Program-made: the position numbers and the translations under genes
Shown here: in pieces, positions 8,996-34,699 of the stretch
Position numbering within the stretch: the first letter of the stretch is position 1
Layout of the letters: each line of letters starts with the position of its first letter
Notes under the pieces: generated by a model
Database searches by the model: none
What the model was told of the DNA's origin: nothing
The model's input: the letters and a program-made list of their open reading frames with translations, nothing else
NCBI GenBank assembly: GCA_039588155.1
Contig: JBDHAI010000009.1
Location: forward strand, 1 to 34,699
Origin: Gemmatimonadota bacterium
GTDB taxonomy: Bacteria > Gemmatimonadota > Gemmatimonadetes > Palauibacterales > KS3-K002
DNA length: 34,699 bases
Direction: 5' to 3'

Positions 8996-9004
8996 GACAT
9001 CGCG

Positions 9005-18443: not shown

Positions 18444-18499
18444 AACGAGGCGGGCTATCGGGCTCAACACGCGTTGAAATTGGGAACCCAGGAGTAGCG

Positions 18500-19439: not shown

Positions 19440-20403
19440 GAAACAGGACGGTACCGTTGTCTATCGCATTCGCGTCGAGGAACCGCCCGACCAAAGACTC
19501 GACCGCTTCCTCGCCGAACAACTGTCACTTAGCCGCTCCCATACAGCTGCTCTGATCGAAGCTGGCCGCGTTCACATCGGCGAGCACGTTCCCAAGAAAA
19601 GCTACATACCGGAACCGGGGGACATCATCATCGTCGCAGTCCCGCCCCCGCCACCCATCGCCGCCGAGGCCGAGGATATCCCGCTCGAGATCCTCTATGA
19701 AGACGACGGCTTTCTCGTTGTTAATAAACCAGCTGGAATGGTCGTGCATCCAGCCCCTGGACACCGGCGTGGCACTCTCGTAAACGCTCTGTTGCATCGC
19801 GTCGGCCAGCTCTCAACCGTGGGAGGTGCACACCGCCCGGGCATCGTGCATCGCCTCGACAAGGACACCTCGGGGCTCGTCATCGTGGCCAAAGACGAGA
19901 AGGTGCACCGCAAGCTCGCTGATGCCCTCGCTCGTCGGAAGATACGCCGTCACTACCTGGCGGCTTGCTGGGGCCACCTGCCGGACGACAGCTTGCTCAT
20001 CGAGGCCGACATCGGGCGGCACCGCCGCGACCGCAAGAAGATGGCGGTGGTGCCGGGAGCTCGACCCGCAGCCACCGAGATCCAGCGGCTGGAGCGTTGG
20101 CGCGCCGCCGACTTCCTCCGCATACGGCTGCACAGCGGCCGCACGCACCAGATTCGTGTGCACCTCCACCACATCGGCCACCCGATCGTCGGCGACCGCC
20201 AATATGGTGCGGCTTGGGAGCGGGGATTGGGGGGTGCCGGAGACCGCTGGCCCCGGGATTTTGTGAGGCAGGTGACACGGCAGTTCCTTCACGCCGCGGA
20301 ACTCGCCCTGGAGCACCCCATAACGGGAGCTAGCTTACAATTCTCGGCCCCGCTGCCCGAGGCGCTCGAAGAGGCGGCAGAATGGGCTCGCCAGACGAGT
20401 TGA
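19411..20403 (+). CDS. rluD: RluA-family 23S rRNA pseudouridine synthase (S4 plus catalytic domain)
   Basis: RLDRFL...SRS S4 domain, NKPAGMVVHP, HRLDKDTSG, GRTHQIRVH, LHA; GTG start after GGAGGA. Confidence 0.92.
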   Translation: MTAKKVDRLEKQDGTVVYRIRVEEPPDQRLDRFLAEQLSLSRSHTAALIEAGRVHIGEHVPKKSYIPEPGDIIIVAVPPPPPIAAEAEDIPLEILYEDDGFLVVNKPAGMVVHPAPGHRRGTLVNALLHRVGQLSTVGGAHRPGIVHRLDKDTSGLVIVAKDEKVHRKLADALARRKIRRHYLAACWGHLPDDSLLIEADIGRHRRDRKKMAVVPGARPAATEIQRLERWRAADFLRIRLHSGRTHQIRVHLHHIGHPIVGDRQYGAAWERGLGGAGDRWPRDFVRQVTRQFLHAAELALEHPITGASLQFSAPLPEALEEAAEWARQTS

Positions 20404-20428
20404 CCGAGGCGTTAGTCGTTATTAAACT
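20400..20428 (+). promoter_or_regulatory. Putative sigma70 promoter of the che/mgl operon
   Basis: TTGACC, 17 nt, TAAACT in an AT-rich patch; a second TATACT follows at 20429-34. Confidence 0.6.
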
Positions 20429-20487
20429 TATACTTCCGCGAGTGACTGCACTCGATCCCTCCCCCGGTTCCCACGAGTTCCAGAGGG

Positions 20488-20991
20488 TTGTTCAAGGTGT
20501 CGGACTACGCCAGGCGCCAGCTTCTCTTCGAGGTAGGCGACTACTTGTTCGCCGCCGACGCCGGTGAGGTGCTGGAGATCCTCGAACCGGTAAGCGCGAC
20601 GCCCGTCCCTGGCGCCGTCGCGGGCGTCGACGGTCTGGTCAATCTGCGCGGAAAGCTGATCGTTTCCGGCCATTTCGCGAGGCTACTCGGGTTGAAGCGG
20701 GAAGGGGTGGATGAGCCCGCGCTGGTGGTGTTCGAGCACGGAGGTCGCTCGGTCGCCCTGCAGGTCGATGGAGTCGTGGGAATGGCCCCCGCATCAGGCG
20801 GGGAGCTAGATGTGGGGGGTGACCTTCTAGCGGCGCTGGGCGCACGCGATGTCGTCCGGGGTGTGGGGCGATTCGGATCGCGGCCGTACTTCCAGTTAGA
20901 CATGGCGGCGGTCTTCGCGCGAGTGCTGGAGCGGGACGGCGAGGGTGGTCCGGGGTTAGAGCTGGGATCGACGGAAGGGCAGGTTGCATAA
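20488..20991 (+). CDS. cheW: Chemotaxis coupling protein CheW
   Basis: V.EIL...TPVPGA...V.GLVNLRG and AL.VD.V motifs. Start is TTG 20488 or GTG 20497. Confidence 0.88.
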   Translation: MFKVSDYARRQLLFEVGDYLFAADAGEVLEILEPVSATPVPGAVAGVDGLVNLRGKLIVSGHFARLLGLKREGVDEPALVVFEHGGRSVALQVDGVVGMAPASGGELDVGGDLLAALGARDVVRGVGRFGSRPYFQLDMAAVFARVLERDGEGGPGLELGSTEGQVA

Positions 20992-21353
20992 TGGGCCGCA
21001 CGGTGCTGGTTGTAGATGATGCGATCTTCATGCGCACGATGATCGGTGACATCCTGAAGCAGGCCGGCTTCGAGGTGGTGGGCGAGGCTGCATCGGGCAT
21101 CGAGGCCGTAGAGAGGTACAAGGAGCTGAATCCGGATCTGGTCACCATGGACATCGTTATGCCCGACATGGGTGGAATCGATGCGGTGCGTGCGATCATC
21201 AAAGAGGATCCAGACGCGAGAATCCTCATGTGCAGCGCGATGGGGCAACAGGGTTTGGTGGTCGAAGCGATTCAGGCGGGGGCGCGCGATTTCGTGGTCA
21301 AGCCGTTTCAGCCTTCACGAGTTATCGAAGCTGTTCAGCGCTTGTTGGGATGA
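20991..21353 (+). CDS. cheY: Single-domain response regulator CheY
   Basis: VLVVDDAIFMR, VTMDIVMPDMGG (phospho-Asp), MCSAMGQ, FVVKPF; Thermotoga/Bacillus-like style. Confidence 0.93.
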   Translation: MGRTVLVVDDAIFMRTMIGDILKQAGFEVVGEAASGIEAVERYKELNPDLVTMDIVMPDMGGIDAVRAIIKEDPDARILMCSAMGQQGLVVEAIQAGARDFVVKPFQPSRVIEAVQRLLG

Positions 21354-23011
21354 GCGAGCACGACAAGTACGCCCAGCTATTTGCAGCGGAGGCGCGCGAG
21401 CATCTTTCTGAGATGAGTCGCGCGCTCGTTGCACTGGAGGACGAGCAGCAAGGCGGCGAGGCGCTCGATTCCGTTTTTCGCTCAGTCCACACCATCAAGG
21501 GTATGGCGGGGGCGATGGGCTATGACGTGGCGTCGCGCCTAGCTCACAACATCGAGTCGTTACTGGATGAGCTGAGGTCTGAAGAACGAGAGGCGAGGGG
21601 CGACGTCGTGGACCTTCTGCTCGAGGCCACCGATGTGCTGGACGCCGTCGTCGAGGCGACGGTCGCGGGCAAGCAGCCACCGGATCCGTCAGACATCGTG
21701 GAGCGTCTCGTCCTGTGTCGGCTGGCCGATGAGGGTGGCGGCGGTCCGGAGGTCGGTCGGGCGGCGGCAAGGGAAACGAGGGCCGCTCTGCCTGGGGCGG
21801 CAGGGCCGTCGGGCATTTCCTCGATTGCGCGGGCGGGGGCGACCTCTCGCCGCGCCGACTCGAGTCGCGTTCGCGTCGACATCAGACGGCTCGATGCACT
21901 GCTGAATCTATTGGGTGAACTGACGATCGTGCGCAGTCGTCTGCGAGCGCTGGCCGATGACCTCGAGTCGGAAGGGCTATCCGAAGCTGTGGAAGAAGCG
22001 AGCAAGCTCGTCGGCGAAATGCAGATGCACGTCATTGAAAGCCGAATGGTTCCTGTCTGGCAGATCTTCGATCGTTTTCCGCGGCTCGTGAGAGACGCCG
22101 CGCGTGCAGCGGGGAAGGAAGTGGAGCTGGACATCAGCGGCAAGGAGCTGGAGCTGGATCGTTCGATGCTGGATGCGATCAGCGATCCGCTCGTTCACTT
22201 GTTGCGTAATGCGGTCGACCATGGCATCGAGTCGCCCGACGAGCGCGAGAAGCACGGGAAGCCGCGGGCCGGGCGGGTTGGACTGTCGGCGCGCCGCGAG
22301 CGGTCTCGCGTGGTCATCGTGGTGCGAGACGACGGTCGCGGTATCGACCGCGACGAAATCACGGCTCTGGCACGGCATCGAGGTCTGCTCGCCAAGAACG
22401 CCGAGTTGAGCGATCAGGAGCTGTTCCGGATCGTGGCTCGGCCTGGGTTTTCCACTGTCGAGAAGGTCACGGCGCTTTCCGGTCGCGGTGTCGGGCTCAA
22501 CGTCGTGGACGACACGATTCGCGGACTTGGCGGTTCTGTCGAGCTGCGAACCGAGGAGCGGGGCGGCACGACCGTCCGTCTCGAGCTTCCGCTCACGCTC
22601 GTCATCCTGCCGGCGCTGGTCGTGGAAGTCGGTGGCCAATTCTATGCGCTTCCAGCTACGTTCACCCGGGAGAGCTTCGAAGCGATCGAGTCGGATGTCG
22701 AGCGAGCCCACGGGCGCGAGTGGATCTGCTGGCGTCACGAGCGCGTGCCGCTCACGCGTCTGCAGAGGCTGTTTGGCAACGGCCGCGAGGCTCGCAACGG
22801 TGCTAAGCTAAAGCTGGTAGCGCTGGAATATGGTGGCGAGAAGCTGGTGGTCTCGGTGGATGGCTTCGTGCGCGAGGAGGAGATAGTGGTCAAGTCTTTC
22901 GATCCGCCGCTCGGCACGGTCCCGGTTTTCTCGGGAGCCACAGTTCGTTCGGACGGGCGGCCGGCGCTCGTTGTGGATGTCGGCAACTTAGACGGGGCTA
23001 GTTACTCGTAG
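21350..23011 (+). CDS. cheA: Chemotaxis histidine kinase CheA (P1-P3-P4-P5, no evident P2)
   Basis: FRSVHTIKG Hpt, VRVD..RLD.L.NL.GEL, HLLRNAVDHGIE, DDGRGID, PGFST, SGRGVG, C-terminal CheW domain; ATGA overlap with cheY. Confidence 0.96.
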   Translation: MSEHDKYAQLFAAEAREHLSEMSRALVALEDEQQGGEALDSVFRSVHTIKGMAGAMGYDVASRLAHNIESLLDELRSEEREARGDVVDLLLEATDVLDAVVEATVAGKQPPDPSDIVERLVLCRLADEGGGGPEVGRAAARETRAALPGAAGPSGISSIARAGATSRRADSSRVRVDIRRLDALLNLLGELTIVRSRLRALADDLESEGLSEAVEEASKLVGEMQMHVIESRMVPVWQIFDRFPRLVRDAARAAGKEVELDISGKELELDRSMLDAISDPLVHLLRNAVDHGIESPDEREKHGKPRAGRVGLSARRERSRVVIVVRDDGRGIDRDEITALARHRGLLAKNAELSDQELFRIVARPGFSTVEKVTALSGRGVGLNVVDDTIRGLGGSVELRTEERGGTTVRLELPLTLVILPALVVEVGGQFYALPATFTRESFEAIESDVERAHGREWICWRHERVPLTRLQRLFGNGREARNGAKLKLVALEYGGEKLVVSVDGFVREEEIVVKSFDPPLGTVPVFSGATVRSDGRPALVVDVGNLDGASYS

Positions 23012-23026
23012 CCAACGGTTGCTTTA

Positions 23027-23647
23027 ATGGATGAAGCACAAGATCGACGCGACCTGCAGCTCGATGCGCTGAAAGAGGTCGCGAACGTCGGGGCAGGCCA
23101 TGCGGCGACGGCGCTGAGTCAGCTAACGAATCGCCGGGTGATGATCGACGTTCCCAGTGTGCAGGTATGCGACATCGAGGAAGCGGCTGCGGGTGTGTTG
23201 AACGGGAACGGTGTGGTCGCGGCCATCCTGATGCACGTCCTTGGCGACTTAACGGGGCGCAGTCTTATGCTGTTCGACAAGGACTGCGCGTTGCAGCTCG
23301 CGGATTTGCTACTGAGCAGGGAGCCGGGTACGACCAAGGTATTCGGTGAACTCGAGCAATCATCGCTCAAGGAGACGGCCAACATTCTTACGGGTGCGTA
23401 CTTGGGTGGTCTCTCCGACTTGTTGGGGCTAATGCTCATACCTTCGGTGCCCAGTCTGGCCATCGACCTGTGTGCGGCGGTGCTGTCCACCGCCTATCTC
23501 AACTTTGGGTATGAACGGGGCATCGTGATCATTCTGGACACGCGCTTTAGGTTCGAACCCGGAGGTACCGGCATGGCCGGACACTTTGTTCTCTTGCCGG
23601 ATCCGGCGAGCCTCGACGTGATTCTGAGGGCCGCTCGGCTCACCTAG
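23027..23647 (+). CDS. cheC: CheY-P phosphatase CheC
   Basis: Two ExxN motifs: DALKEVANVGAGHAATALS and SSLKETANIL; PS.P motifs. Confidence 0.93.
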   Translation: MDEAQDRRDLQLDALKEVANVGAGHAATALSQLTNRRVMIDVPSVQVCDIEEAAAGVLNGNGVVAAILMHVLGDLTGRSLMLFDKDCALQLADLLLSREPGTTKVFGELEQSSLKETANILTGAYLGGLSDLLGLMLIPSVPSLAIDLCAAVLSTAYLNFGYERGIVIILDTRFRFEPGGTGMAGHFVLLPDPASLDVILRAARLT

Positions 23648-23651
23648 AAGG

Positions 23652-26369
23652 ATGACTGGACTAGTTCACTCTGAGGACGACCTTCGCGTACTGCGGGCTC
23701 TGGCCAATCGCATAGATCCTGGAGACGCAGGGGCGTGCAACAACCTGGGAGTCGTTTACTTCCAGAAGAGCCTGTTCGAGGAAGCGATCGAGCAGTTTCG
23801 TCGCGCGCTCGAGATCGATGGAAAGATGGAAGTCGCGCGCCGCAATCTTGAGATCGCTTACCATCAGACGGGCTACTACGATCGTCGAATCGCAGAGCTG
23901 ATTGGCCGCATTCAGGCCGACGATGATGACGACAAGGCGCGTCGCGAGTTGGCCGAATCCTTCCTGCAGGCCGGACGTGTAGACGAGGCGATCGCGCAGT
24001 ACGAGACGCTGGCGGGCAGCCACCCCGACGACTGGCGTCTCCTCATGCAACTGGGCAATGCCGAGAAGAATCGGGGCGAGCTGAAGCGCGCCAGCGAGTG
24101 GTTCGAGCGCGTGCGCGAGCTCGAGCCGAAGCGAGCCGCCGTTTACTATGCTCTAGGCGAAATCCTCTACAACCAAGGGATGAATGAAGAGGCCATCGCC
24201 CACCTGCGTAAGGCGCTGTCGCTCGATGCAGGGCTGGCGGATGCCCACCGGCTGCTCAGCTTCATCTACGGCGAGGTCGGCGAGTCGGATAAAGCGGCGG
24301 AACACGCCACGCGAGCGGTCGAGCTCAACCCAGCGGCGGCGCGTGCGCAAGTCAACCTCTCGCTGGACCGCTACAGCTCGGCTCAGTACCACGAGCTGAC
24401 CGGGGGCGAGCCGACGCCGGCGGCGCAGCCCAAGGAGGCCTTCGCGCACCTGGCCCTGGGGATCGCCTTCAGAGCGCGCGGTTTCTACGAGGAAGCGCGA
24501 CAGGAGCTCTCACGGGGACGAGAGGCCGGTGAGGACACAGCGCTGATCGACCAAGCCGAGGCCGAGCTCGCCCTGCTCGAAGGAGACGCCGAAGGTGCGC
24601 TGTCGCGGTACGATGCGCTCCTCTCGAGCCTGGACAGCAGCCCGAAGGTATGGAACGAGCGCGGTGTCGCGCTCCACCAGGTCGGCCGCTTGGATGAGGC
24701 GCAGAAGAGCTACAGCCGTGCGCTGGAGATCGATGAGAACTACGGACTGGCATGGAACAACATAGGCGTTCTGAGTGCTCACCGTGGGGATAGCGCTGCC
24801 GCCGAGGTCGCATTCAAGCGTGCGCTCGAGGTGCAACAGGATTTGGATGACGCGCGACTGAACCTAGGTCTGCTGTGGACGAAGGGCGGGCAACTCGAGA
24901 ATAGTCTGGAACTCCACGAAGAGATGCTGGAGAGCGATGCCAGTCGGGCGGATGCGTGGAACGGCCTGGGCGCGACGTTCATGTCACTGGAGCGTTTTGT
25001 CGAAGCACGTAACGCCTTCGTAAGAGCGGTCGAGCTGAATCCTCATTTTACGCCGGCCCGCTACAACTTGAGCTTCGCTCTCGCTCGACTTGGAGATCAT
25101 GAAGGAGCTCTGCGCGAGACCAAGCAGGCACTCGAGCTCGATCCGTACTACACGTCGCCGCGTTACAAGCTCTCTATCGACCTGCATTACGAAGGAAGTG
25201 AAGTCTGGGCGCCTGAATTGGCGGCGCCCGAGCGAATCGAGGCCCGCGGGCCGGCAATTCGCGACTTCGAGTTCGATCCAGCAGAACTCGAGGATGTGTT
25301 CAAGGAGCTCGACGCTCCGGGCTTGGCCGAGGCGGGAGCCGTGGAAGTGGTCGAGGAGGTCGCGGCCGTCTCGCTCGCGGCGGCACGCGAGTATCTGGCC
25401 AACGGGCTCTACGACCGCGCACTTGCAGAGGCGACACAGGCCGTTCGCGAAGGCGCGGACAGAGCGGATGGCGCGCTGTTGATCGGCGAGGTGTACACGC
25501 AGCGCGGCCTCCACGGTGAGGCGCTCGAGCGCTACGAGCAGGCTCGGCGATTGCGACCCGGTGATCCCGAGGCCCTGGCGGGAGCGGCCCGCTGCCTGCT
25601 GCGGCTCGATAGGTTGGAAGAGGCCCGCGAGTTGGCTGAAGAACTGCAGCCGCAGGCTGGTGATGATCTCGGCTACATGCTGACGGTCGGCGAGATCCTC
25701 ACGCGGTCGGGCGATGCGAAACGGGCGATGGAGGTGCTCGACATCGCTGTCCAAGCGGCGCCCCACGATCCGGTGGTGCATAGGCAGTTGGCGCGGGCGG
25801 CGCTGGCGGGCGGCAACCGTCGGCGCGCCAAGAACGCGTACTGGAAAGCGATTACAGAGGACCCCGACTACGCGGCGGCGCGGGTCGAGCTGGGACAAAT
25901 ATTGGTTGAAGAGGGCGCCTACGACGAGGCGGAAGGTGAGATTCGCCGCGCTTTGCAGCTGATGCCGACGTACACGACGGCCAATTTGGTACTTGCCGAG
26001 CTGCTCTCGCGCCAGGGAAAGACCCGGGAGACTATTAATTTGATCGCCGGCCTATTGGAGGTCGAACCCTACAATATCGACGCCCTGGTGGTCCTAGGCG
26101 AAGCTCTCGCGGCCGAGGGGCGGCAGCGCGACGCCGAGCAGGCATTTAGCCGGGTGCTGCACTTCGATTCCGATCGGTCGATCGCGCTGTTTCGATCGGG
26201 CGAGTTGGCCGCCGAGTCCGGACGTTACCGAGAGGCTCTCAGCTACTGGCGCCGTCTTTTCGAGGTCGATCCGGAAAGCGAATATGCGGCGCGGGCCCGT
26301 GTGCAAGCGCGGGCAGCGCTGGGTCTGAACATCGCCTTACAGGGCGCAGCGGCGCAGGGTGGTGGATAG
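23652..26369 (+). CDS. Large cytoplasmic TPR-repeat protein (905 aa)
   Basis: Many TPR units (e.g. ACNNLGVVYFQKSLFEEAIEQFRRALEID, VWNERGVALHQVGRLDEAQKSYSRALEID) in clusters separated by acidic linkers; no signal peptide. Confidence 0.92.
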   Translation: MTGLVHSEDDLRVLRALANRIDPGDAGACNNLGVVYFQKSLFEEAIEQFRRALEIDGKMEVARRNLEIAYHQTGYYDRRIAELIGRIQADDDDDKARRELAESFLQAGRVDEAIAQYETLAGSHPDDWRLLMQLGNAEKNRGELKRASEWFERVRELEPKRAAVYYALGEILYNQGMNEEAIAHLRKALSLDAGLADAHRLLSFIYGEVGESDKAAEHATRAVELNPAAARAQVNLSLDRYSSAQYHELTGGEPTPAAQPKEAFAHLALGIAFRARGFYEEARQELSRGREAGEDTALIDQAEAELALLEGDAEGALSRYDALLSSLDSSPKVWNERGVALHQVGRLDEAQKSYSRALEIDENYGLAWNNIGVLSAHRGDSAAAEVAFKRALEVQQDLDDARLNLGLLWTKGGQLENSLELHEEMLESDASRADAWNGLGATFMSLERFVEARNAFVRAVELNPHFTPARYNLSFALARLGDHEGALRETKQALELDPYYTSPRYKLSIDLHYEGSEVWAPELAAPERIEARGPAIRDFEFDPAELEDVFKELDAPGLAEAGAVEVVEEVAAVSLAAAREYLANGLYDRALAEATQAVREGADRADGALLIGEVYTQRGLHGEALERYEQARRLRPGDPEALAGAARCLLRLDRLEEARELAEELQPQAGDDLGYMLTVGEILTRSGDAKRAMEVLDIAVQAAPHDPVVHRQLARAALAGGNRRRAKNAYWKAITEDPDYAAARVELGQILVEEGAYDEAEGEIRRALQLMPTYTTANLVLAELLSRQGKTRETINLIAGLLEVEPYNIDALVVLGEALAAEGRQRDAEQAFSRVLHFDSDRSIALFRSGELAAESGRYREALSYWRRLFEVDPESEYAARARVQARAALGLNIALQGAAAQGGG

Positions 26370-27503
26370 ATGCCGATAGAGGGCTCGCTGCGCGAATTCG
26401 CGCTACAAGACATCTTTCAGTTGCTTCACCTGTCGCGAAAGACCGGCGAGCTGAAAGTGGTTCGCGAGCCGTCCGGGCTGCGCGGCGCAGTGATCTTCAG
26501 CGGCGGTGCCGTCGTGGATTCCGATGTGGACGAGGAGACGCCGCGCCTCGGGTACATGTTATTGAACGCCGGAAAGATCACCGAGGCGGATCTCCAGCAT
26601 GCAGGTCGAGTGCATTCGATGGATGCGAGGCGCTCGTGGACGGACATTTTTTCTTCGCTCGGCATACTCGACCAGGAAGACCTCGAGGAGTACGCGAAGT
26701 TTCAGGTCGAGGAGTTCGTCTACGAAGTACTGAGTTGGCAGGACGGACGTTTCTCGTTTGGTGAACGCCCGGTGGCAGAGTCGGAGCGCGTCACCTGGAT
26801 ACCTGTGGAGTCGCTGCTCATGGAGGGGGCCCGACGTGCGGATGAGCTGTCGGCGCTTCCGACGACTATTGACAGCCCCAACGCCGTACCGCGACTGTCA
26901 GAGAAAGCGGCCACAGACGGAGGTATGTTAGATCTCTCGCCACAGGACTGGGAGGTCATAGGCCGGGTGGACGGCGTCACGGATGTGAAGTCGCTCGCCT
27001 GGACCCTTGGGCGCAGCGAGTTCGAGGTGAGTAAGGTCATCTCGCTGCTCGTTCAGAAGGGGCTGATCGAGCTGCAGAGTCAGGAAGATGCACGCACCAA
27101 ACCCCCGCATGTGATGGCCCTTGATCGAGTCGAGCGAGAGATCGAGGCCGGCGAGCTGGATGTGGCCCGCAGGCACATAGACTCCGTGCTCAGAGCGCAC
27201 CCCGAGGAGCCCCGTGCTCACCTTTTGGCGGCGCGCATCCTCGAGCACTCCCGCGATCTGAGGGCGGCCGCGGAGTGCTACGAAAAGACACTCAGCTTCG
27301 ATCCGTTGGCGGAGGAGGCACGGCAGCGATTGGGTCTACTGAAGCTCCGACTCGGGGACGTTGACGGAGCTGCGCGAGAGTGGACGGCATACTTGAGGAT
27401 GGCTCCGAATACGCCTGACCGCCGGCGTGTTGAGCGGGCGATGGCTGCAGTCAGAGAGCTGCAAATCATACTGAGCGAGTTCGATGGCAGGGAACATCCG
27501 TAG
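26370..27503 (+). CDS. DUF4388 (PATAN-like) protein with C-terminal TPRs
   Basis: IEGSL.EF.L.DIFQLL....KTGEL, W..G.F.F, ESLLMEGARR.DE, an HTH-like segment, then about 3 TPRs. Confidence 0.88.
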   Translation: MPIEGSLREFALQDIFQLLHLSRKTGELKVVREPSGLRGAVIFSGGAVVDSDVDEETPRLGYMLLNAGKITEADLQHAGRVHSMDARRSWTDIFSSLGILDQEDLEEYAKFQVEEFVYEVLSWQDGRFSFGERPVAESERVTWIPVESLLMEGARRADELSALPTTIDSPNAVPRLSEKAATDGGMLDLSPQDWEVIGRVDGVTDVKSLAWTLGRSEFEVSKVISLLVQKGLIELQSQEDARTKPPHVMALDRVEREIEAGELDVARRHIDSVLRAHPEEPRAHLLAARILEHSRDLRAAAECYEKTLSFDPLAEEARQRLGLLKLRLGDVDGAAREWTAYLRMAPNTPDRRRVERAMAAVRELQIILSEFDGREHP

Positions 27504-28281
27504 ATCGCTGCAGGAGCTGAGCGCCGAGGTCGCGACGAACCCGAACTCGACCGCGTTCGTTGAGTTGGCTGCCGCGTATCGCGAGCGCGGCGACGCCCGT
27601 CGTGCGCTTTGGCTGTGTCTGCGGGGACTGCAGCGACATCCCACGCACGTGGAGGCTCACTTCGAGCTTGGTCGGATCTATGAAGCGCGAGGCGAGCGGG
27701 AGTTGGCGCTGGACGAATGGAACATCGTCCGGCAACTGGCGCCCGATCACCTCGCTTCGCGCCTCGCCTTGGTACGGCTCTACATCAGCGAGGGCCGACG
27801 AGCCGACGCGCAGGTCGAGCTCGAAGCCGCTCAGGAAATCTCCCAGGGGAACGCGATTATTACGGAACTCTGGGATGAGCTTGAGGACCTCGACGAGGAC
27901 AGACCCGTCGCCGCACGGGAGGGTGTCTTCGATAGTCTGGTCGCGGACTATCCCGGCACTCTGGGGATTCTGCTCATCGATCGAGACGGCCGGGTGATCG
28001 TAGGGGGGATTTCGCAGGAAGGCGTGGAGTCGGATATGGCGCTGGCCGTGAATCTCTACAGCGCCCAGGCGGAGGCGGAACGCGTGGCGTCGTACCTCGG
28101 AATGGGCGACCTGAGTGGGTTCGTTGTCGAGAGTGACTCGGCGCGGCTTACCGTTTCGCCGGTGGAAGAGAATGTGGTCGTCGTCGTGACGAGCCACGAT
28201 GTTCCGGCGGGGCGGGCGGCTCGTGTGGGTCAGAGGGCGTGGCAAGTCGCGCAAGATTACCTGAGCACCAACGGGCGATGA
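27484..28281 (+). CDS. TPR + roadblock/LC7 fusion protein
   Basis: N-terminal NPNSTAFVELAAAYRERG...HP..VEAHFELG TPRs; C-terminal GILLIDRDGRVIVG...LGMGDLSGFVVES...PAGRA roadblock fold. Confidence 0.8.
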   Translation: MAGNIRRSLQELSAEVATNPNSTAFVELAAAYRERGDARRALWLCLRGLQRHPTHVEAHFELGRIYEARGERELALDEWNIVRQLAPDHLASRLALVRLYISEGRRADAQVELEAAQEISQGNAIITELWDELEDLDEDRPVAAREGVFDSLVADYPGTLGILLIDRDGRVIVGGISQEGVESDMALAVNLYSAQAEAERVASYLGMGDLSGFVVESDSARLTVSPVEENVVVVVTSHDVPAGRAARVGQRAWQVAQDYLSTNGR

Positions 28282-28643
28282 GAGGAACTCCGTACGAAAA
28301 CACGCTGGCTCATGTGATGAGAATGCCCGGAGTGCGCGGCGCCCTGGTCGTCGCAGTCCGAGACGGCCTCGTGGTTGATGGGCGAGTGCACGTTGGCGTC
28401 CACGGAGAGGCTGTCGCCGCGCTCGCCGCATCGCTCTATCGACGTGCCTGCCGAGCGACAGGGGACGGCGAAGGCGAGGGCCGTTTCGTCGAGCTCGATG
28501 CTGAGCGGGGCCGGATCATGATCGCGGGCCAGGGCGATCTCGCCCTGATGGCCTTTGTGGAACGGCGGGCCAATGCTGGCCAGGTCCGGCTCGCCGTGCG
28601 GCGGGCGGCGCAGAGCCTCGACGCTTCGGGAGAAGTCGTCTAG
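28278..28643 (+). CDS. Roadblock/LC7 domain protein
   Basis: PGVRGALVVAVRDGLVV...AVAALAASL...ANAGQVRL; ATGA overlap with the upstream gene. Confidence 0.88.
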   Translation: MRGTPYENTLAHVMRMPGVRGALVVAVRDGLVVDGRVHVGVHGEAVAALAASLYRRACRATGDGEGEGRFVELDAERGRIMIAGQGDLALMAFVERRANAGQVRLAVRRAAQSLDASGEVV

Positions 28644-29132
28644 ATGGACCGCCTCGATCTGCGGCAGATCCAAGAGGCCTTTTCCAGTCCGCTGGAAGAA
28701 TTCGTGCGCGAGACACGAGTACGGCTCGCCGTGTTGATCAACCGCAGCGGCCAGGTCCTGGCGCAGCACGGATTCGACAAGCTCTTCGACCTGGTGGGCG
28801 TCGCCTCGCTGGCCGCGGGGATCAACGCCTCGAGTCGCGCGCTGGCTGTGCAGCTGGGTGAAGAGGAGTTCGAGCATTTGCACCACGCTGGCCGTTCCCG
28901 CCAGCTGTTCCTCGGGCACTTCGACTCCGCCGCCGGCCAGTTGATGCTGGTGACGGTGTTTGATGAGCGGTCCTCGATCGGGCTGGTGAGACTGTTTTTC
29001 GAGGAATTCGTTATGCGTCTGCGTGGGCTGCCTGCGATGGATATGGCGCGCTCGCGGATAAGCGCACAGCAATTCGAAGCCGAACTCGAGGCGAGTCTCG
29101 ACCGGTTTTTCCAAGATTTGATAGGCACCTGA
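28644..29132 (+). CDS. mglB: MglB-type roadblock protein (probable GAP of MglA)
   Basis: LINRSGQVLAQHG, SLAAG.....ALA..LGE.EF....H.G, VFDERSSIGLVRL, acidic C-terminal helix; directly upstream of mglA. Confidence 0.85.
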   Translation: MDRLDLRQIQEAFSSPLEEFVRETRVRLAVLINRSGQVLAQHGFDKLFDLVGVASLAAGINASSRALAVQLGEEEFEHLHHAGRSRQLFLGHFDSAAGQLMLVTVFDERSSIGLVRLFFEEFVMRLRGLPAMDMARSRISAQQFEAELEASLDRFFQDLIGT

Positions 29133-29134
29133 TC

Positions 29135-29755
29135 ATGTCGCTGGTCAACTACGCCACGCGCGAAATAACCTGCAAGATCGTCTACTACGGGCCCGGTCGC
29201 TCGGGCAAGACGACGAATCTGCAATACATCCACAGTCGTGTTCCGTGGGATCGCAAGGGCGAGATGGTTTCGCTGGCCACCGAAGCGGATCGCACGTTGT
29301 TCTTCGATTTCCTACCGATCAATCTCGGCGACATCTCAGGATTCACGACGCGATTTCAGCTTTATACGGTGCCTGGCCAGGTGTACTACAACGCTACGCG
29401 CAAGCTCGTTTTGCAGGGAGCGGACGGAGTCGTCTTCGTAGCGGACAGCCAGAGGTCGCAAATGGACTCGGATATCGAGTCGTTCAGAAACCTGCAACAG
29501 AACCTTCTGGAGCACGGCATCGATGTGCGGGATATCCCGGTGGTCATTCAGTATAACAAGCGGGACCTGCCTAATGTCTTCAGCATCGAGCAACTGGATG
29601 AGGAATTGAACTTCCGCGACGTGCCGAGTTATCCGGCCTCAGCGCTGATGGGTGAAGGTGTCTTCGATACGCTGCGAGCGGTCAGCGAGGGAGTATTGAG
29701 GAAGCTGGCTGGCAAGCTCGAGATTCCGAAGGGGCTAGAAGTTTCGAGGCGCTGA
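29135..29755 (+). CDS. mglA: MglA small Ras-like GTPase
   Basis: REI.CKIVYYGPGRSGKTTNL, SLATE.DRTLFFD (intrinsic Arg finger), YTVPGQ, DGVVFVADSQ, YNKRDL. Confidence 0.95.
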   Translation: MSLVNYATREITCKIVYYGPGRSGKTTNLQYIHSRVPWDRKGEMVSLATEADRTLFFDFLPINLGDISGFTTRFQLYTVPGQVYYNATRKLVLQGADGVVFVADSQRSQMDSDIESFRNLQQNLLEHGIDVRDIPVVIQYNKRDLPNVFSIEQLDEELNFRDVPSYPASALMGEGVFDTLRAVSEGVLRKLAGKLEIPKGLEVSRR

Positions 29756-30942
29756 TGGTAGCGAGCGTGATCGACCCAGGCTTGACCTTTAAGTCGTTCG
29801 TGTTGGGAGCGGAGAACCGCCTTGCCTGGGAGGCCGCACGGACCACCTCGGAGTCACCTGGCTCGGCATACAATCCCCTCTTCATCTACAGCGCGACCGG
29901 CCTCGGCAAGACGCACCTTCTCGTAGCCATAGCTAACCAGGCCAAGGAACTGCACCCGGGAATGAAGGTCGTCTACACACCGCTCGAGCAGCTGCTACGG
30001 GAATTGGAAAGCAGGGAAGAGCCCGAGGCCGATTTTCTGGGCTCGGAGATCCTGCTGATCGACGACCTGCAGTTCATTGGAAACCACAGCGAAAGCCACC
30101 AGGTGCTGTTCAACCTCCTGGATCACATGCTCATGGCCGGCAAGCAGGTGGCATTGGCGTGCGATCGGCCGCCGTTGGAGCTGGGCGCGCTCGATGACCG
30201 TTTGCTGTCCCGGTTCAGCGGCGGGCTGGTGGTCGACATCGGCCGGCCTCTGCTCGAGACGCGCCGCGCGATCCTCGAGGTCAGGCTCGCGGCCGTCGGC
30301 CAGTCACTGCGGCCTGAGGTCGTCGATGCCATCGCGCGTCTGGCGTTGGAGAACGTGCGCCAGTTGAAGGGAGCGCTGAATCGTGTACTGGCCGCCCAAA
30401 AGGCAGAAGGGCGAGATGTCGAGGCCGATGAGATCGATCGATTGCTTGCCGATGTGGTAGGCGACCCGGACATGCCCTGGCTCGATGAGGGGCGTGCGAA
30501 GACGCGCGGCGAGTTCCGCGATTTCCTCAGCGATGTGTCGACGGCCGTCGAGGAGGCTCTCGGCTCGCCGGCCTGGAGAGAGGAGCTGGCCCGGGCGATC
30601 CTCAAGTGGGAGGCCGAGGGTTACGTCACCAAGAGGCTCGAAGACTTTCTGGATGTGGAAGACACCGTCGATGCCGAGAAACTCGTCAGCAACTTCGAGC
30701 GAGACATCGCCGCACTCAAGGCGCTGGAGCGGGAGCTCGAGCGGCTCGGGGCACCGAAGCCCCGCGACCTGAGCCTCAAGGATCCCGATTGCGTTGGAGA
30801 TGTCCGGGCACTGCTCGAGCAGGTTCGCCGTGAGACGCTGGCCGTCGACGACTATTTCTTCGACTCCGAGAAGGTCGTCTGGGAGTGGCCGGTGATCGAA
30901 GAACTGCTGATCGAGGCATGGGACGATGGCGATCAAGGGTAG
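29755..30942 (+). CDS. DnaA/Hda-family AAA+ ATPase lacking DnaA domains I, II and IV, with an unassigned acidic C-terminal region
   Basis: TF.SFV.G.ENRLA, YNPLFIY..TGLGKTHLL, LLIDDLQF, CDRPP, RLLSRF.GGL, ETRRAIL, NVRQL.GAL; then an unrelated ~170-aa tail ending DDYFFDSEKVVWEWP. Confidence 0.88.
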   Translation: MVASVIDPGLTFKSFVLGAENRLAWEAARTTSESPGSAYNPLFIYSATGLGKTHLLVAIANQAKELHPGMKVVYTPLEQLLRELESREEPEADFLGSEILLIDDLQFIGNHSESHQVLFNLLDHMLMAGKQVALACDRPPLELGALDDRLLSRFSGGLVVDIGRPLLETRRAILEVRLAAVGQSLRPEVVDAIARLALENVRQLKGALNRVLAAQKAEGRDVEADEIDRLLADVVGDPDMPWLDEGRAKTRGEFRDFLSDVSTAVEEALGSPAWREELARAILKWEAEGYVTKRLEDFLDVEDTVDAEKLVSNFERDIAALKALERELERLGAPKPRDLSLKDPDCVGDVRALLEQVRRETLAVDDYFFDSEKVVWEWPVIEELLIEAWDDGDQG

Positions 30943-32557
30943 CCTGAAAGAGGCCAGTCTGCCCGACGTCTTGCAGCTCCTGACGATGGGAGGCAAGACC
31001 GGTTGTTTGTCGGTAACCGATCGTCAGAGTTTCGGCTACATCTACTTTCGTGAAGGGCGGATCATCTACGCCTCGCTGCTCAACCGGCGCGACCGGCTGG
31101 GCGACGTTTTCGTACGTGAGAATGTAATTTCGCGCCACGAGCTCGACGCAGCGATCGCGGAACAAAGCGAGAAGCGCGATGGACGGCGGCTTGGCGAGAT
31201 CCTCGTCAACCGGGAGCTCATCGATCAAGAGACGTTGGAGCGTTTTGTAAAGTACCATATCCAGGAGGCTGTCTACCATCTCTTCACGTGGAATTCTGGC
31301 ACCTTCTACTTCGAGCCGGCCAAGTCCCCGGAGCGCGAGAAGATTCTCGTGTCGATCGACCCCGAAAGTCTACTCTTGGAGGGCGCTCGCCGTGTCGACG
31401 AGTGGAGCCAGATCCGTAAGAAGGTCCCGTCGCTCGAGGTCGTATACACTCTCGATTCAGATCGCGCCGGCTCGTTATCATCGCTGGACCTCAGCCCGCA
31501 AGAAGAGAAGATCCTCCCGTACCTCGATGGAAAGCACACCGGTTGGGACCTGATTGACCAGACCGCGCTCGGTGAGTTCGAGGTCGGCCAGGCGCTCTAC
31601 GGTCTGATCTCCGCCGGCCTCGCGCGAAGGACGGGTCGGCGCGCGCGTGATACCTCGAGGTCGGAGCAAGGAGGGCGGCTCGAAGAGCACAAGAATCTCG
31701 GCGTGGCCTTCTACAAGACCGCGATGTTCGAGGAAGCGGTGAGAGAGCTGAGATTGGTGCTCGAGCTCTCTCCCAAGGACCTGGATGCGGATTTCTTCCT
31801 GGCTCTCGTGGCGTTCCGTGAGGGGGACTATCAAGCCGCCGAGGCAAAGCTGCGGCAGATCATGGAGCGAGGCGGTACGCGGCCGGCGGCGTACAACAAC
31901 CTGGCGATAGTGCTCAGCCGTCTGGGGAAGATGGCCGAAGCGTTCGCTGTCCTCGATGCTGGCCTCGAGCTCACGCCGGGACATGCGAGGCTGTGCCTGA
32001 CCAAGGGGATCCTTCAGCTGCGCGAGGCCGATCCGGCCGCCGCGAAGAGCACTCTGGAACGTTATGCGGAGCTGGTGGGCGATGAACGGTCTGCTCTCTA
32101 CTACTCGGCACGGGCACTGGCGGAAGCCATGTCGGCGGACCTCGATGCTGCCGCCAACCTGTCCGAGGAGGGGATCGCGCGACATCCGGAGTCTGCGGCT
32201 CTGGCCAACAACGCCGGCGTGGTCATGGAGCGTCGAGGGGATTACGAGCGGGCGCGCGAGCTGTATGAGATGGCGTTTGAGCACGAGTCGGCGCTTGCGC
32301 AGGCCTCCAAGAATCTGGGGGATCTGCTCTACCGAGATGGTCGTTATGAGGACGCCGCCGAAGCCTACCAGCGTGCGCTGCGCACGGAGCCCGACCTGGG
32401 TGATGACGTGTACGCCAAGCTGGGTAACGTCTATTACAAGAGTAGAGATCGGGAGCTGGCGGTCCAGATGTGGGAACGCGCCCTGAGAATGAACCCAGCC
32501 AACGAGGTGGTGCGCACGAACTTGGAATTCGTGAGGGGCACAGGCGGTGATCGCTGA
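30926..32557 (+). CDS. DUF4388 (PATAN-like) protein with an MshEN-like insert and C-terminal TPRs
   Basis: IKGSL.E.SLPDVLQLL...KTG.L, tandem RLG motifs, W.SG.F.F, ESLLLEGARRVDEW, then multiple TPRs. Confidence 0.88.
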   Translation: MAIKGSLKEASLPDVLQLLTMGGKTGCLSVTDRQSFGYIYFREGRIIYASLLNRRDRLGDVFVRENVISRHELDAAIAEQSEKRDGRRLGEILVNRELIDQETLERFVKYHIQEAVYHLFTWNSGTFYFEPAKSPEREKILVSIDPESLLLEGARRVDEWSQIRKKVPSLEVVYTLDSDRAGSLSSLDLSPQEEKILPYLDGKHTGWDLIDQTALGEFEVGQALYGLISAGLARRTGRRARDTSRSEQGGRLEEHKNLGVAFYKTAMFEEAVRELRLVLELSPKDLDADFFLALVAFREGDYQAAEAKLRQIMERGGTRPAAYNNLAIVLSRLGKMAEAFAVLDAGLELTPGHARLCLTKGILQLREADPAAAKSTLERYAELVGDERSALYYSARALAEAMSADLDAAANLSEEGIARHPESAALANNAGVVMERRGDYERARELYEMAFEHESALAQASKNLGDLLYRDGRYEDAAEAYQRALRTEPDLGDDVYAKLGNVYYKSRDRELAVQMWERALRMNPANEVVRTNLEFVRGTGGDR

Positions 32558-33350
32558 AGACGCCGCATATGCCGCGCTGCTCGCGAAGGTGGAACGCGAG
32601 CGCGGCTTTCGTGGAACACACTATCGGCAGCGATGCTTACGGCGGCGCGTGGCCGTGCGTATGCGGGCGCGTCGAGTCCAAGAGATAGCAGACTACGCAG
32701 CGCTGCTCGACGACGATCCTGCCGAGTATGACCTGCTGATGCGCGTGCTGACGATCAACGTCAGCAAGTTCTTCCGTAACCCAGAGACATGGGATGTCAT
32801 TAAGAGGGAAGTGGTTCCGGAGCTGCTGCGCCGCGAGCCGCCCCTACTCATCTGGAGCGCCGGATCGGCAGCCGGTGAAGAGGCCTACAGCATTTCGATT
32901 CTCGTGTCGGACTGGCTGGCCAGTCGGGGCGAAGCCACCCGGAACCGGGTGAGGATCATCGGGACCGACATCGACGATGAGAGCCTGAGTGCCGCACGCA
33001 GCGCCGAGTACACCGATGTGGCGCTCTCGGAGACCCCCATGTCGTTGCGCCGGCGCTGGTTCTCCAAGGCCAAAGACTGGAAGCTCAAAGAGCCCGTCGC
33101 CTCGGCGGTCGAGTTCCAGCAGCTGGATGTTCTCGAAGGACGACCGGACTTTCAGGCCGACCTGATTCTCTGCCGCAACCTGTTGATCTACCTGGATCGG
33201 CCTGCACAATCGCGGGTGTTCCAGACCTTCGTCGATGTATTGCGTCCGAGGGGGTATCTAGTACTCGGCCGAGTCGAGATGTTGGGTGCCGAAGTTCGGA
33301 CGCGCTTCGAGGCGATCAACTCACGAGAGAGGATTTACCGGAAGCTGTGA
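32547..33350 (+). CDS. cheR: Protein-glutamate O-methyltransferase CheR
   Basis: LTINVSKFFRN, WSAGSAAGEEAYS, GTDID, DLILCRNLLIY, GYLVLG..E. Confidence 0.95.
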   Translation: MIAEDAAYAALLAKVERERGFRGTHYRQRCLRRRVAVRMRARRVQEIADYAALLDDDPAEYDLLMRVLTINVSKFFRNPETWDVIKREVVPELLRREPPLLIWSAGSAAGEEAYSISILVSDWLASRGEATRNRVRIIGTDIDDESLSAARSAEYTDVALSETPMSLRRRWFSKAKDWKLKEPVASAVEFQQLDVLEGRPDFQADLILCRNLLIYLDRPAQSRVFQTFVDVLRPRGYLVLGRVEMLGAEVRTRFEAINSRERIYRKL

Positions 33351-33826
33351 GAGAATTCGTCTTGGCCGGAGAAAGTCGAGTGGGAAGAGGCGAGGGCACT
33401 CTCTCCGTTCTGGGCTTGGGCTCGTGTGTCGCGATCGTGCTGTACGATCGGCAGACGCGAGTCGGTGGACTGGCCCACGTGCTCCTGCCAGACCCGGCCT
33501 TCTCTTCGAATCCGGATCAACGCTGGCGGTTCGCGACAACGGCCATCCCCGACTTGCTGAAGGAGGTCGAGAGGGCGGGCGCGATACGTACACAGGTGAC
33601 GGCGAGGCTCGTGGGCGGAGCCTGCATGTTCCAGGAGCTGATAGCCAAGAACGGTCCTCATATCGGCAAGCGCAACGTTGCGGCGGCGCGCACGACGCTG
33701 GATGAGGGCGGCGTCAGGATAGTTGCGGAAGAAGTTGGTGGTGATTTCGGGCGTTCGGTGGACTTCGACCTCGAAAACGGGCGCGTGAGGGTCTCATCGC
33801 ACGGGCGAGATGATGTCGAAATCTGA
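33347..33826 (+). CDS. cheD: Chemoreceptor glutamine deamidase CheD
   Basis: LGLGSCVA (catalytic Cys), GGLAHVLLP (His), GGA.MF, IG.RN, VGG..GR. Confidence 0.94.
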   Translation: MREFVLAGESRVGRGEGTLSVLGLGSCVAIVLYDRQTRVGGLAHVLLPDPAFSSNPDQRWRFATTAIPDLLKEVERAGAIRTQVTARLVGGACMFQELIAKNGPHIGKRNVAAARTTLDEGGVRIVAEEVGGDFGRSVDFDLENGRVRVSSHGRDDVEI

Positions 33827-34699
33827 TCGCAGCGAAAGCGCGGCCACTGTACTTGTCGTGGACGACAGCGTGTTGATGCGACGCATCATCTCCGACATGA
33901 TCGGGCGCTACCCGGGCTATCGAGTCGTCGGCGTAGCTAGCAATGGTGAAGAGGCACTGCGTGCCATCGAGGAGCACAAACCTGACGTCGTGACTCTCGA
34001 CATCGAGATGCCCAAGATCGATGGGTTCGGTGTGCTCGAGCGGGTCATGTCGTCCAAGCCGCGGGCGTTTGTGGTGGTCTCGGCTCATACGCACGAAGGT
34101 TCGGAAGCGGCAATGAGGGCGCTCGACCTGGGGGCGGTGGAGGTGGTGCCCAAGCCGTCGGGTCAGTTGTCGTTCGACATCTGGAAAGTGGAAGCGCGCC
34201 TCTTCGAATCGTTGGAGGCGGCTCGAGTCGCGGATCTGGCGGCGCTCCTCAAAGAGCGAAGACCTTCCTTGCCGACCGGGGCGCCCGGGCGCAGCGATGC
34301 CGCCGTGGCGCTGGCCGCGTCGACCGGCGGACCTCGCGCCTTGTCCCACGTATTGAGCGCGCTCCCAGCCGAGCTCGGTGCGGCGGTACTGGTCGTCCAG
34401 CACATGCCGCCCGGCTTCACGTCCGCTTTGGCGGATCGTTTGTCCAAGGTGGCCCGAATGCCGGTGGCGGAGGCGAGCGGTGGTGAGTTGGTCGTGCCCA
34501 ACCAGATCTGGATCGCGCCAGGCGACTTTCACATGCGCGTCAGGCAAATCGATGCGGATGTCAGGATAACCCTCGACCAGAGGGATCTGATATGTGGTAC
34601 GCGCCCCGCAGCCGACGCGCTGTTCCCGACGGTCGCCGATGCCTACGGGGCGCGCTGCGTCGGTGTGGTGCTTACAGGTATGGGTCGCGATGGAGCGGC
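33810..34699 (+). CDS. cheB: Protein-glutamate methylesterase CheB; 3' end runs off the window
   Basis: Not in the ORF track; translated by hand. Receiver VLVVDDS...VTLDIEMP...PKP, then ASTGGP, VQHMPPGFT, APGDFH, RPAAD, VLTGMGRDGA (Ser-His-Asp triad). Confidence 0.95.
   Translation, partial: MMSKSDRSESAATVLVVDDSVLMRRIISDMIGRYPGYRVVGVASNGEEALRAIEEHKPDVVTLDIEMPKIDGFGVLERVMSSKPRAFVVVSAHTHEGSEAAMRALDLGAVEVVPKPSGQLSFDIWKVEARLFESLEAARVADLAALLKERRPSLPTGAPGRSDAAVALAASTGGPRALSHVLSALPAELGAAVLVVQHMPPGFTSALADRLSKVARMPVAEASGGELVVPNQIWIAPGDFHMRVRQIDADVRITLDQRDLICGTRPAADALFPTVADAYGARCVGVVLTGMGRDGA

Follow-up and report, generated by a model that had tools for sequence, protein, structure and literature searches.

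The window analysed here is a stretch of 34,699 nucleotides, the entire 34.7-kb contig (C9) of a metagenome-assembled Gemmatimonadota genome (G000) that comprises 437 contigs and is 84% complete. Positions 20488–34699 carry the subject of this analysis, an operon of 15 genes on the + strand in which chemosensory genes enclose a module containing an MglA-type GTPase and a DnaA-derived ATPase. Pfam identifies cheW, cheY, cheA and cheC, then eight inserted genes, then cheR, cheD and cheB. The insert encodes, in order, a 905-amino acid (aa) TPR protein, a PATAN-TPR protein, a TPR-Roadblock protein, a Roadblock protein, MglB, MglA, an ATPase with DnaA domain III and a second PATAN-TPR protein. According to the coordinates, intergenic gaps are 15 nt or less, the widest separating cheA from cheC, and nine junctions overlap by 1–20 nt. 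These values bear out the initial annotation, which had described at least 15 co-oriented genes that overlap or lie at most 15 nt apart; every gene that it named is confirmed by Pfam, in the order given and on the + strand. The cheB gene is cut at the contig end. In relatives one further operon gene follows cheB, encoding a protein with two CheW domains, and beyond it lie unrelated genes; the complete unit therefore comprises 16 genes. No gene for a receptor of the methyl-accepting chemotaxis protein (MCP) family is present within the operon.

The chemosensory genes form a complete set of the CheC/CheD type, with cheC and cheD alongside cheA, cheW, cheY, cheR and cheB. The coupling protein CheW is encoded at 20488–20991 (Pfam CheW, E 4.8e-18), with a possible GTG start at 20497. 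The cheY gene (20991–21353; Response_reg, 2.6e-30) encodes a single-domain response regulator, presumed to be the output of the kinase. Its translation contains DD, D54, S82 and K104, and it matches Thermotoga maritima CheY with an E-value of 7.9e-51. A comparison of 15 CheY orthologues of 120 residues shows 69 invariant columns out of 120, and the phospho-site residues do not vary in 16/16 sequences. This conservation, with the retention of cheY alongside the module described below, fits a protein having several partners inside the module. The histidine kinase gene cheA (21350–23011; Pfam Hpt, H-kinase_dim, HATPase_c and CheW) most likely starts at 21350, in an ATGA overlap with cheY, rather than at the open reading frame start, 21230. 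CheA has the P1 motif HTIKG and matches CheA in the Protein Data Bank (PDB) at 5.5e-94; Pfam detects no P2 domain. Its gene is the sole H-kinase_dim match in the window's genome. The phosphatase acting on phosphorylated CheY (CheY-P), CheC (23027–23647; Pfam CheC, 2e-17), retains both D/S-x3-E-x2-N sites. In NCBIfam, CheC scores highest with CheC_Thtogales (147 bits; cut-off 250) and CheA with CheA_Halo (433 bits; cut-off 950), both under the threshold. On the far side of the insert are the genes for the methyltransferase CheR (32547–33350; Pfam CheR, 8.5e-45), the deamidase CheD (33347–33826; Pfam CheD, 2.1e-27) and the truncated methylesterase CheB (33810–34697; Pfam receiver and CheB_methylest domains). 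CheB is complete in relatives, at 359–364 aa.

The first inserted gene, termed TPR905 (23652–26369), encodes a protein of 905 aa assigned throughout to Pfam TPR families; it shows 39–46% identity in 12 full-operon loci of other families. In Myxococcus, SgmX, a protein made up wholly of TPR repeats, serves MglA-GTP as an effector and acts upstream of PilB (PMC7668184), and by its likeness to SgmX, TPR905 is a candidate MglA effector or scaffold. PATAN1 (26370–27503, 377 aa) combines a PATAN domain (DUF4388, 2.8e-28) with TPR repeats. Both it and PATAN2, described below, have TPR repeats and lack a Response_reg domain, which distinguishes them from the PatA type, in which PATAN is joined to a receiver. 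Three Roadblock/LC7 proteins follow. One carries TPR repeats as well (27484–28281, 265 aa; TPR_19 1.6e-9, Robl_LC7 3.5e-7), the next is a small, second MglB-like protein (28278–28643, 121 aa; Robl_LC7 9.6e-8; start at 28278 likely), and the last is an MglB-like protein and candidate GTPase-activating protein (GAP) (28644–29132, 162 aa; Robl_LC7 4.1e-8). The gene for this candidate GAP abuts mglA; the protein matches the MglB structures of M. xanthus and Thermus thermophilus at 8e-12 to 4e-10 and scores 54.9 bits with the NCBIfam MglB equivalog, under its cut-off of 200. PDB matches of the other two Roadblock proteins are no closer than those to generic Roadblock proteins, and are weak for the small one.

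The mglA gene (29135–29755) encodes a Ras-like GTPase of the Group-1 type. Its product matches the structure of M. xanthus MglA at 2e-77 over residues 1–191, and that of T. thermophilus MglA at 1.7e-70. Group 1 has been delimited by its P-loop, an intrinsic arginine beside the G2 threonine, and TVPGQ (Wuichet and Sogaard-Andersen 2015, PMC4316618). All three occur here, as the P-loop GPGRSGKT, the arginine in ADRT and the G3 motif TVPGQ, and NKRD is also present. Every carrier of the operon encodes a second, canonical MglA elsewhere, and the paralogue tree splits the operon-specific and canonical lineages with 100/100 support. The canonical copy of the window's genome, 63% identical to the operon copy, lies on the − strand at G000:C302:2910–3494, where the contig ends; an accompanying mglB, if there is one, falls beyond it. 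At one locus of family f3 (L057, genome G237, 8845–9450) the operon MglA is strongly diverged, with 34% identity and a very long tree branch. TPR905, cheR, cheD and cheB are all missing from that locus, where the operon copy looks to be decaying.

Next to mglA is the gene for a DnaA-derived AAA+ ATPase of 395 aa (29755–30942; Pfam Bac_DnaA, 8.4e-41, ATPase domain only). A DnaA domain III at residues 5–235 is followed by a helical region at about 264–362 and a conserved C-terminal tail at 364–390. Domain III is 40% identical to that of Bacillus subtilis DnaA over residues 5–235 (1.7e-45), and the Walker A (GLGKTHL), Walker B (LLIDD), DRPP, sensor I, box VII arginine and sensor II motifs are kept. 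The initial annotation had judged the catalytic motifs of the operon to be intact, and those of this ATPase, CheY, CheA, CheC and MglA are present in the translations. A structural model (predicted local distance difference test, pLDDT, 82) fits domain III of B. subtilis DnaA (8bv3_A) with TMt 0.91 and a root-mean-square deviation (rmsd) of 1.8 Å. Against full-length DnaA structures the rmsd is 12–17 Å, so the C-terminal part fails to superpose. The protein is neither a DnaA initiator nor an Hda: Pfam finds domain III alone, with no domain I or IV, and scores are 222 bits with TIGR00362 (DnaA), below 343.9, and 76.5 bits with TIGR03420 (Hda), below 194.8. Without domains I and IV, the part that binds double-stranded DNA is missing. 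The fold search confirms the DnaA domain III part only and returns nothing for the C-terminal region, and an atlas search with residues 240–395 gave no usable match. In families other than the window's, the ATPase measures 575–698 aa, mostly 640–650, with two tandem domain-III units and the same C-terminal tail, as at L046 (9476–11425) and in 17 other rows of the ATPase alignment. By this sequence comparison, the second domain-III unit is lost in the window's family. We have met no description of the tandem architecture in the literature. In the alignment, the ATPases of the reduced f6 loci described below have a degenerate Walker A motif in the second AAA+ unit. Contigs of the DNA runs X1 and X2 contain a joint that skips 133 bases within the ATPase gene (29918–30052), the shorter side being 22 letters; strain variation or an error of assembly could account for it.

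The last inserted gene encodes PATAN2 (30926–32557, 543 aa; DUF4388, 2.5e-39), which consists of a PATAN domain, a winged-helix-like part and TPR repeats. A PDB profile search with the protein returns TPR proteins only. The first 250 residues (window 30926–31675), covering the PATAN and winged-helix-like parts, give a confident model (pLDDT 88); in a fold search, no solved structure matched it with an E-value under 0.1. The modelled N-terminal fold seems to have no counterpart in the searched copy of the PDB, since faint resemblances to a winged helix and to SEA/GATOR complexes are unreliable. Residues 57–109 resemble the MshEN motif, which consists of two tandem 24-residue units of the form RLGxx(L/V/I)(L/V/I)xxG(L/V/I)(L/V/I)xxxxLxxxLxxQ (PMC5013675). 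PATAN2 scores 46.8 bits with NCBIfam NF053729, which models the MshE-related c-di-GMP motif, above the cut-off of 38, and PATAN1 20.6 bits, under it. Two such motifs are visible in 22/22 aligned PATAN2 orthologues and are near consensus in most, and PATAN2 may, by this motif match, read cyclic di-GMP (c-di-GMP).

The ATPase and PATAN2 genes overlap, and they stay together in every variant of the locus, reduced ones included. The pair was chosen for complex prediction on the guess that the conserved tail is a ligand of the TPR repeats, and custom alignments of 22 rows were used. The prediction scored 0.84 (runs 0.77, 0.84 and 0.86), and the best control 0.00; among solved complexes 58 of 80 reach the score mark applied, and among mismatched pairs two of 110. 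At least 52% of contacts are common to the runs, and the pLDDT of the partners is at least 70. The predicted interface places ATPase residues 364–390 in the TPR groove of PATAN2 (residues 264–495), and the C-terminal tail of the ATPase is accordingly modelled as tethered there.

An 84-nt gap separates cheW from rluD upstream. It contains a candidate sigma-70-like promoter, TTGACC-17-TAAACT (20400–20428, + strand), recognized by its match to the consensus only; this is the one such site in 18400–34699, where 2.2 are expected by chance. The same interval has five terminator-like sites, below the 8.7 of shuffled sequences. A single promoter for the whole operon is plausible. An origin of the insert as a mobile insertion was rejected, because GC content and skew are even along the operon and the gene order is vertically conserved. 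The sequencing reads over the stretch amount to low-depth contigs. In the run X20, whose RNA nature is guessed, small contigs span the TPR905/PATAN1 (26317–26584) and mglA/ATPase (29473–29847) junctions; as contigs do not demonstrate a transcript, they are not counted as evidence here.

The distribution of the operon was followed with the ATPase as query in 401 genomes of the phylum, and 20-kb contexts were obtained for 20 loci from five other families. A pattern scan of genome contigs with six 8-residue ATPase patterns hit five close Gemmatimonadota loci only. Among close relatives, L003–L005 repeat the identical 15-gene order after rluD, and L007 shows its 3' part up to the point where the locus is cut. 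The full order recurs in 12 of the 20 loci of other families, at 35–80% identity; in three of these loci the small Roadblock gene escapes tblastn. The remaining eight comprise one locus that is consistent but cut by the contig, one that is degenerate, one without che genes and mglA, and five reduced loci of family f6. The interleaved order is kept across at least five families. Such recurrence across many genomes is more than chance would give.

Single-gene counts agree with this picture. A single-copy PATAN2 orthologue is present in 279/401 genomes (f1 2/2, f2 0/30, f3 159/166, f4 80/93, f5 6/7, f6 22/70, f7 5/5, f8 4/4, others 0/23). The operon CheC has an orthologue in 252/401 (f3 153/166, f4 84/93, f5 4/7, f6 0/70, f7 5/5, f8 3/4), and the two are concentrated in the same families. 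Both are listed for 56 of the first 60 genomes after G000; they lie on the same contig, 7.9–9.8 kb apart, in 51 of these 56, and on separate contigs in the other five, whose assemblies are fragmented. Of 20 other genomes in the window's own family, 18 encode a single CheA, and 17 have both an operon-type MglA (at least 84% identity) and a canonical MglA (about 62%). CheA and the operon MglA share a contig, 7.3–7.7 kb apart, in 11 of the 18 CheA-bearing genomes; they are on different contigs in six, and in one no operon-type MglA was found. The sister family f2 has CheA in 0/20 genomes, PATAN2 in 0/30, CheC in 0/30 and MglA in 2/20. A lack of conservation of the insert with the che genes had been named in advance as grounds for abandoning the idea of a single system, and the neighbourhood survey points the opposite way, in the identical close loci, the 12 full-order loci and the 51 linked pairs.

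Reduced forms of the locus show which genes can do without the others. A complete chromosome (CP070722.1, locus L006, 3445–12782; genome G004, the same as G406) carries rluD, cheY and eight full-length insert genes. The locus has no che gene except cheY, and no CheA or MCP is found anywhere in that genome. The phospho-site residues of its CheY are intact, and on this retention cheY appears to belong to the module. G384 has a module locus without che genes and without mglA. The f6 loci L039–L043 (for example L041, 6870–10528) consist only of rluD, the tandem DnaA-like ATPase and PATAN2. G253, an f6 genome with such a reduced locus, has FliG and no CheA.

Ordinary flagellar chemotaxis, which the initial annotation had named as a reading that would refute its own, does not account for the operon. 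FliG_C was not found in any of five close genomes, the window's own included, two of which are complete chromosomes. Across the phylum it occurs in 98/401 genomes with a distribution that does not track the operon (f3 32/166, f4 47/93, f7 0/5, f1 0/2, and 13/13 in f10, which is without the operon). Of 12 full-operon genomes, nine lack FliG. In carriers without flagella the operon CheA is usually the only CheA (4/5 sampled, 4/4 close genomes with CheA, 18/18 in the window's own family). Additional CheAs are present in three of four FliG-positive genomes with CheA, mostly two or three in total; among these four, full operon surroundings were retrieved for all but G071. That genome, a single contig of family f4, has CheC and PATAN2 orthologues together with FliG and three CheAs. 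As for type IV pili, PilM was detected in 5/5 and PilB/PilT-type ATPases in 5/5 of the genomes tested. In the correlation with flagella and pili that had been proposed as a check, flagella do not follow the operon and pili do not track the module.

The system had also been pictured as self-contained, which it is not, since its receptors are encoded elsewhere and each genome has the second, canonical MglA. The window's genome encodes two transmembrane receptors outside the operon, one of the dCache-HAMP and one of the HAMP type. The gene for a 563-aa HAMP-MCP overlaps the end of a Peripla_BP_6 gene (G000:C8:5842–8666; L067 843–3667), an arrangement that suggests that this receptor senses its ligand via a binding protein.

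Several characterized systems share parts of this design. The CheC/CheD chemotaxis systems of Bacillus, Thermotoga and archaea have the same gene set, the window's CheY matches that of T. maritima, and its CheC and CheA score best with the Thermotogales and haloarchaeal models, respectively. Those systems drive flagella or archaella, whereas most carriers of the window's type lack FliG; the window's CheA also differs in having no detectable P2, and NCBIfam scores lie below the equivalog cut-offs. CheC/CheD-type chemotaxis is class F1 of the Wuichet–Zhulin scheme, a class marked also by a CheA profile of its own and by 44-heptad receptors; by its gene set the window's system may be F1-like. Functionally nearest is Frz-MglA/MglB/RomR of Myxococcus xanthus, in which a chemotaxis-like phosphorelay acts, as is proposed here, on a Group-1 MglA whose GAP is a Roadblock protein. 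The Frz pathway features the CheA-CheY fusion FrzE, the cytoplasmic receptor FrzCD and the dual-receiver protein FrzZ. By these marks the window's pathway is not of the Frz type: its CheA has no receiver, the receptors are dCache/HAMP or HAMP proteins, and the operon has no dual-receiver gene. Further likenesses are additional Roadblock proteins and TPR effectors, with the choice of pole for type IV pili as the output in Myxococcus (PMC4316618 and PMC7668184). In Myxococcus, frz, mglBA and romR occupy separate loci, as PMC4316618 states in agreement with the initial annotation. The window's genes, by contrast, are interleaved in one operon with a CheC/CheD-type core, a plain CheA and transmembrane receptors, and PATAN-TPR proteins and the DnaA-derived ATPase are added as integral parts.

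PATAN domains within a chemosensory operon are known from the cyanobacterial Tax/Pix systems, where PATAN output orients pili. Synechocystis PATAN binds the PilB1 N-terminus and PilC, as an output of chemotaxis-like systems (bioRxiv 10.1101/2021.06.11.447907). In Tax/Pix the PATAN domain is fused to a receiver, whereas the window's PATAN proteins carry TPR repeats and the receiver stands apart as CheY; in the passages of that source which describe them, Tax/Pix operons contain no MglA/MglB and no AAA+ ATPase. The actinobacterial conservon CvnA-D resembles the window in being a conserved operon that unites a histidine kinase with a Roadblock protein and a GTPase of the MglA family (PMC4316618). 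It differs in its Group-2 MglA and membrane sensor kinase, and in lacking CheA/CheW/MCP, PATAN and an AAA+ ATPase. DnaA and Hda have the AAA+ domain III fold and motifs in common with the window's ATPase. Unlike DnaA, this ATPase has no domains I, II and IV, has a new helical region and a conserved tail, and is encoded in a signalling operon. The MshEN motif of Vibrio MshE lies at the N-terminus of a secretion ATPase (PMC5013675), whereas the putative counterpart in PATAN2 is placed within the helical insert of the PATAN domain.

No published description was found of an operon combining chemosensory, MglA, PATAN and DnaA-like genes, in keeping with the initial annotation, which knew of no characterized system of this combination. 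PMC4316618 records that Gemmatimonadetes have Group-1 MglA, that MglA occasionally has PATAN neighbours and that two MglBs accompany MglA in a few cases. The text consulted describes no chemosensory operon and no DnaA-like gene; its supplementary tables of MglA neighbourhoods might list Gemmatimonas, so this neighbourhood may have been tabulated before. No mention of a DnaA-derived ATPase as a part of an MglA system was found in the MglA literature. A paper on Geobacter che clusters does not mention MglA, Roadblock, GTPase or TPR, and a paper on ComFB refers to PATAN only in passing. The pathway would be of a known kind, leading from chemosensing to an MglA polarity switch, with a new integral component in the DnaA-derived ATPase.

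With slightly more confidence than doubt, we read the operon as one unit, a chemosensory pathway with an MglA/MglB polarity output that would set or reverse the type IV pilus pole during surface movement in sediment. This reading starts from the anatomy, the conservation and the general absence of flagella, which are directly established, and from the predicted ATPase–PATAN2 contact; from these we infer the rest. The proposed mechanism is as follows. (i) The two transmembrane receptors, observed elsewhere in the genome, would feed the operon CheA, a link drawn because the genome has no other CheA. (ii) As their family membership indicates, the receptors would control CheA through CheW, with CheR, CheB, CheD and CheC providing adaptation and signal removal. 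(iii) CheY-P would then act on the Roadblock/MglB set or on a PATAN scaffold and shift the GTP/GDP state of MglA. (iv) By analogy with SgmX and with Synechocystis PatA-type regulators, MglA-GTP would engage the TPR proteins, and the PATAN domains would contact the pilus motor. (v) According to the complex model, the ATPase would be tethered via its tail in the TPR groove of PATAN2, where, more speculatively, it might act as an ATP-dependent oligomerizing scaffold or timer. (vi) PATAN2 may also read c-di-GMP, as its motif match suggests.

A number of findings weigh against this reading. The flagellated genome G031 has the operon CheA as its only CheA, so control of flagella is possible there, and CheY shows about 70% identity with Thermotoga CheY, which is of the flagellar type. 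PilM occurs in 18/20 genomes of the sister family f2, which lacks the module; pili therefore need no module, and the canonical MglA could be the one governing them. The reduced forms in f6 and G384 indicate that the ATPase–PATAN2 pair functions apart from chemosensing and from the operon MglA. PATAN2 of the window departs from the MshEN motif at three key positions, with N and E for glycines and H for the second Q. The complex score, obtained with custom alignments, expresses model confidence and is no measurement. Some of these points also serve another explanation, a single system with an output other than motility, which would place some other polar process according to chemical cues, such as adhesion, the export of exopolysaccharide, or asymmetry in budding or division. 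Division in Gemmatimonas is budding-like, rluD borders the operon on one side, the window has divIVA upstream, and in the window's own family the division cluster mraZ-mraW-ftsI is found a few genes downstream. Pilus genes that persist where the module is absent and the canonical MglA of each carrier are compatible with it, as is the Dif pathway of Myxococcus, which contains CheC/CheD and regulates exopolysaccharide (PMC2577667). Yet the characterized MglA and PATAN systems compared here all act on motility machines, the receptors are transmembrane MCPs of the usual ligand-binding kind and the genes for methylation-based adaptation are complete, as suits gradient sensing, and the neighbouring housekeeping genes show no functional tie to the operon. 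An output of this kind is possible, though we think it doubtful.

Two further explanations differ in how they treat the parts of the operon. The ATPase might tie the pathway to the chromosome, through Hda-like pairing with DnaA or binding to single-stranded DNA or the nucleoid, so that chemosensory or c-di-GMP input would modulate replication initiation or the signalling array would be anchored to the nucleoid. The 40% identity to B. subtilis domain III, the retained arginine finger and nucleotide motifs and the TMt of 0.91 are in its favour, as are the tandem domain-III units of most families and the persistence of the ATPase–PATAN2 pair in f6 without che genes or an operon mglA. We nevertheless regard a chromosomal role as quite unlikely: DnaA domains I and IV are missing, the scores fall below the DnaA and Hda cut-offs, the ATPase is predicted to sit on a TPR scaffold, its gene overlaps mglA and PATAN2, and no locus shows a link to replication genes. 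The idea that two unrelated operons merely lie side by side, one for flagellar-type chemotaxis and one for an MglA scaffold, with che genes serving flagella or nothing, draws on the resemblance of CheY, CheC, CheD and CheA to the flagellar or archaellar type of Thermotoga, Bacillus and archaea. It can also point to the separate occurrence of the halves, with the module lacking che genes in G004 (cheY kept) and G384 and other CheAs present in flagellated members. However, che genes stand on both sides of the insert with overlapping reading frames, the interleaved order persists at 35–80% identity in at least five families, most carriers lack FliG, and cheY stays when all other che genes are lost; chance adjacency is highly improbable. 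A more far-reaching reading holds that a DnaA-type AAA+ ATPase, with its domain III ancestrally in tandem, has been recruited as a core part of the GTPase polarity switch and is held by its tail on a c-di-GMP-reading PATAN-TPR scaffold; ATP, GTP, c-di-GMP and the phosphorelay would then converge in a single machine encoded by the operon. We consider this reading unlikely. In its boldest form the ATPase would still talk to DnaA or the nucleoid and so couple chemosensing to the cell cycle.

In Myxococcus, the route from the chemosensory pathway to the MglA switch is still debated, and the parts are scattered over the genome. Here a single operon, conserved throughout a class of a phylum that has received little study, contains the wiring, and it can be used as a parts list whose candidate connectors are CheY, the three Roadblock proteins, the three TPR proteins and the two PATAN domains. 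It indicates that a che core of the Thermotoga/Bacillus type can serve a non-flagellar output. L006 constitutes a natural experiment in which CheY and the module are retained and the kinase and receptors are lost. The operon may also explain how abundant non-flagellated Gemmatimonadota of sediment and soil move in gradients.

The remainder of the window, bases 1–20403, is occupied by housekeeping genes. They include tilS, ftsH, folP, a DisA_N-type cyclase gene, exbB-exbD-exbD-tonB, ylmE and divIVA, together with genes for a nucleoside phosphorylase and a DksA-type protein, ileS, lspA and rluD. The cyclase gene, upstream of the operon at 9900–10772, encodes a diadenylate cyclase of the DisA_N/CdaA type; no tie to the operon was seen. 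Metagenomes that contain the stretch, at shares of 0.20–0.40, the best of which may be the sample of origin, come from marine sediment and sediment in five studies.

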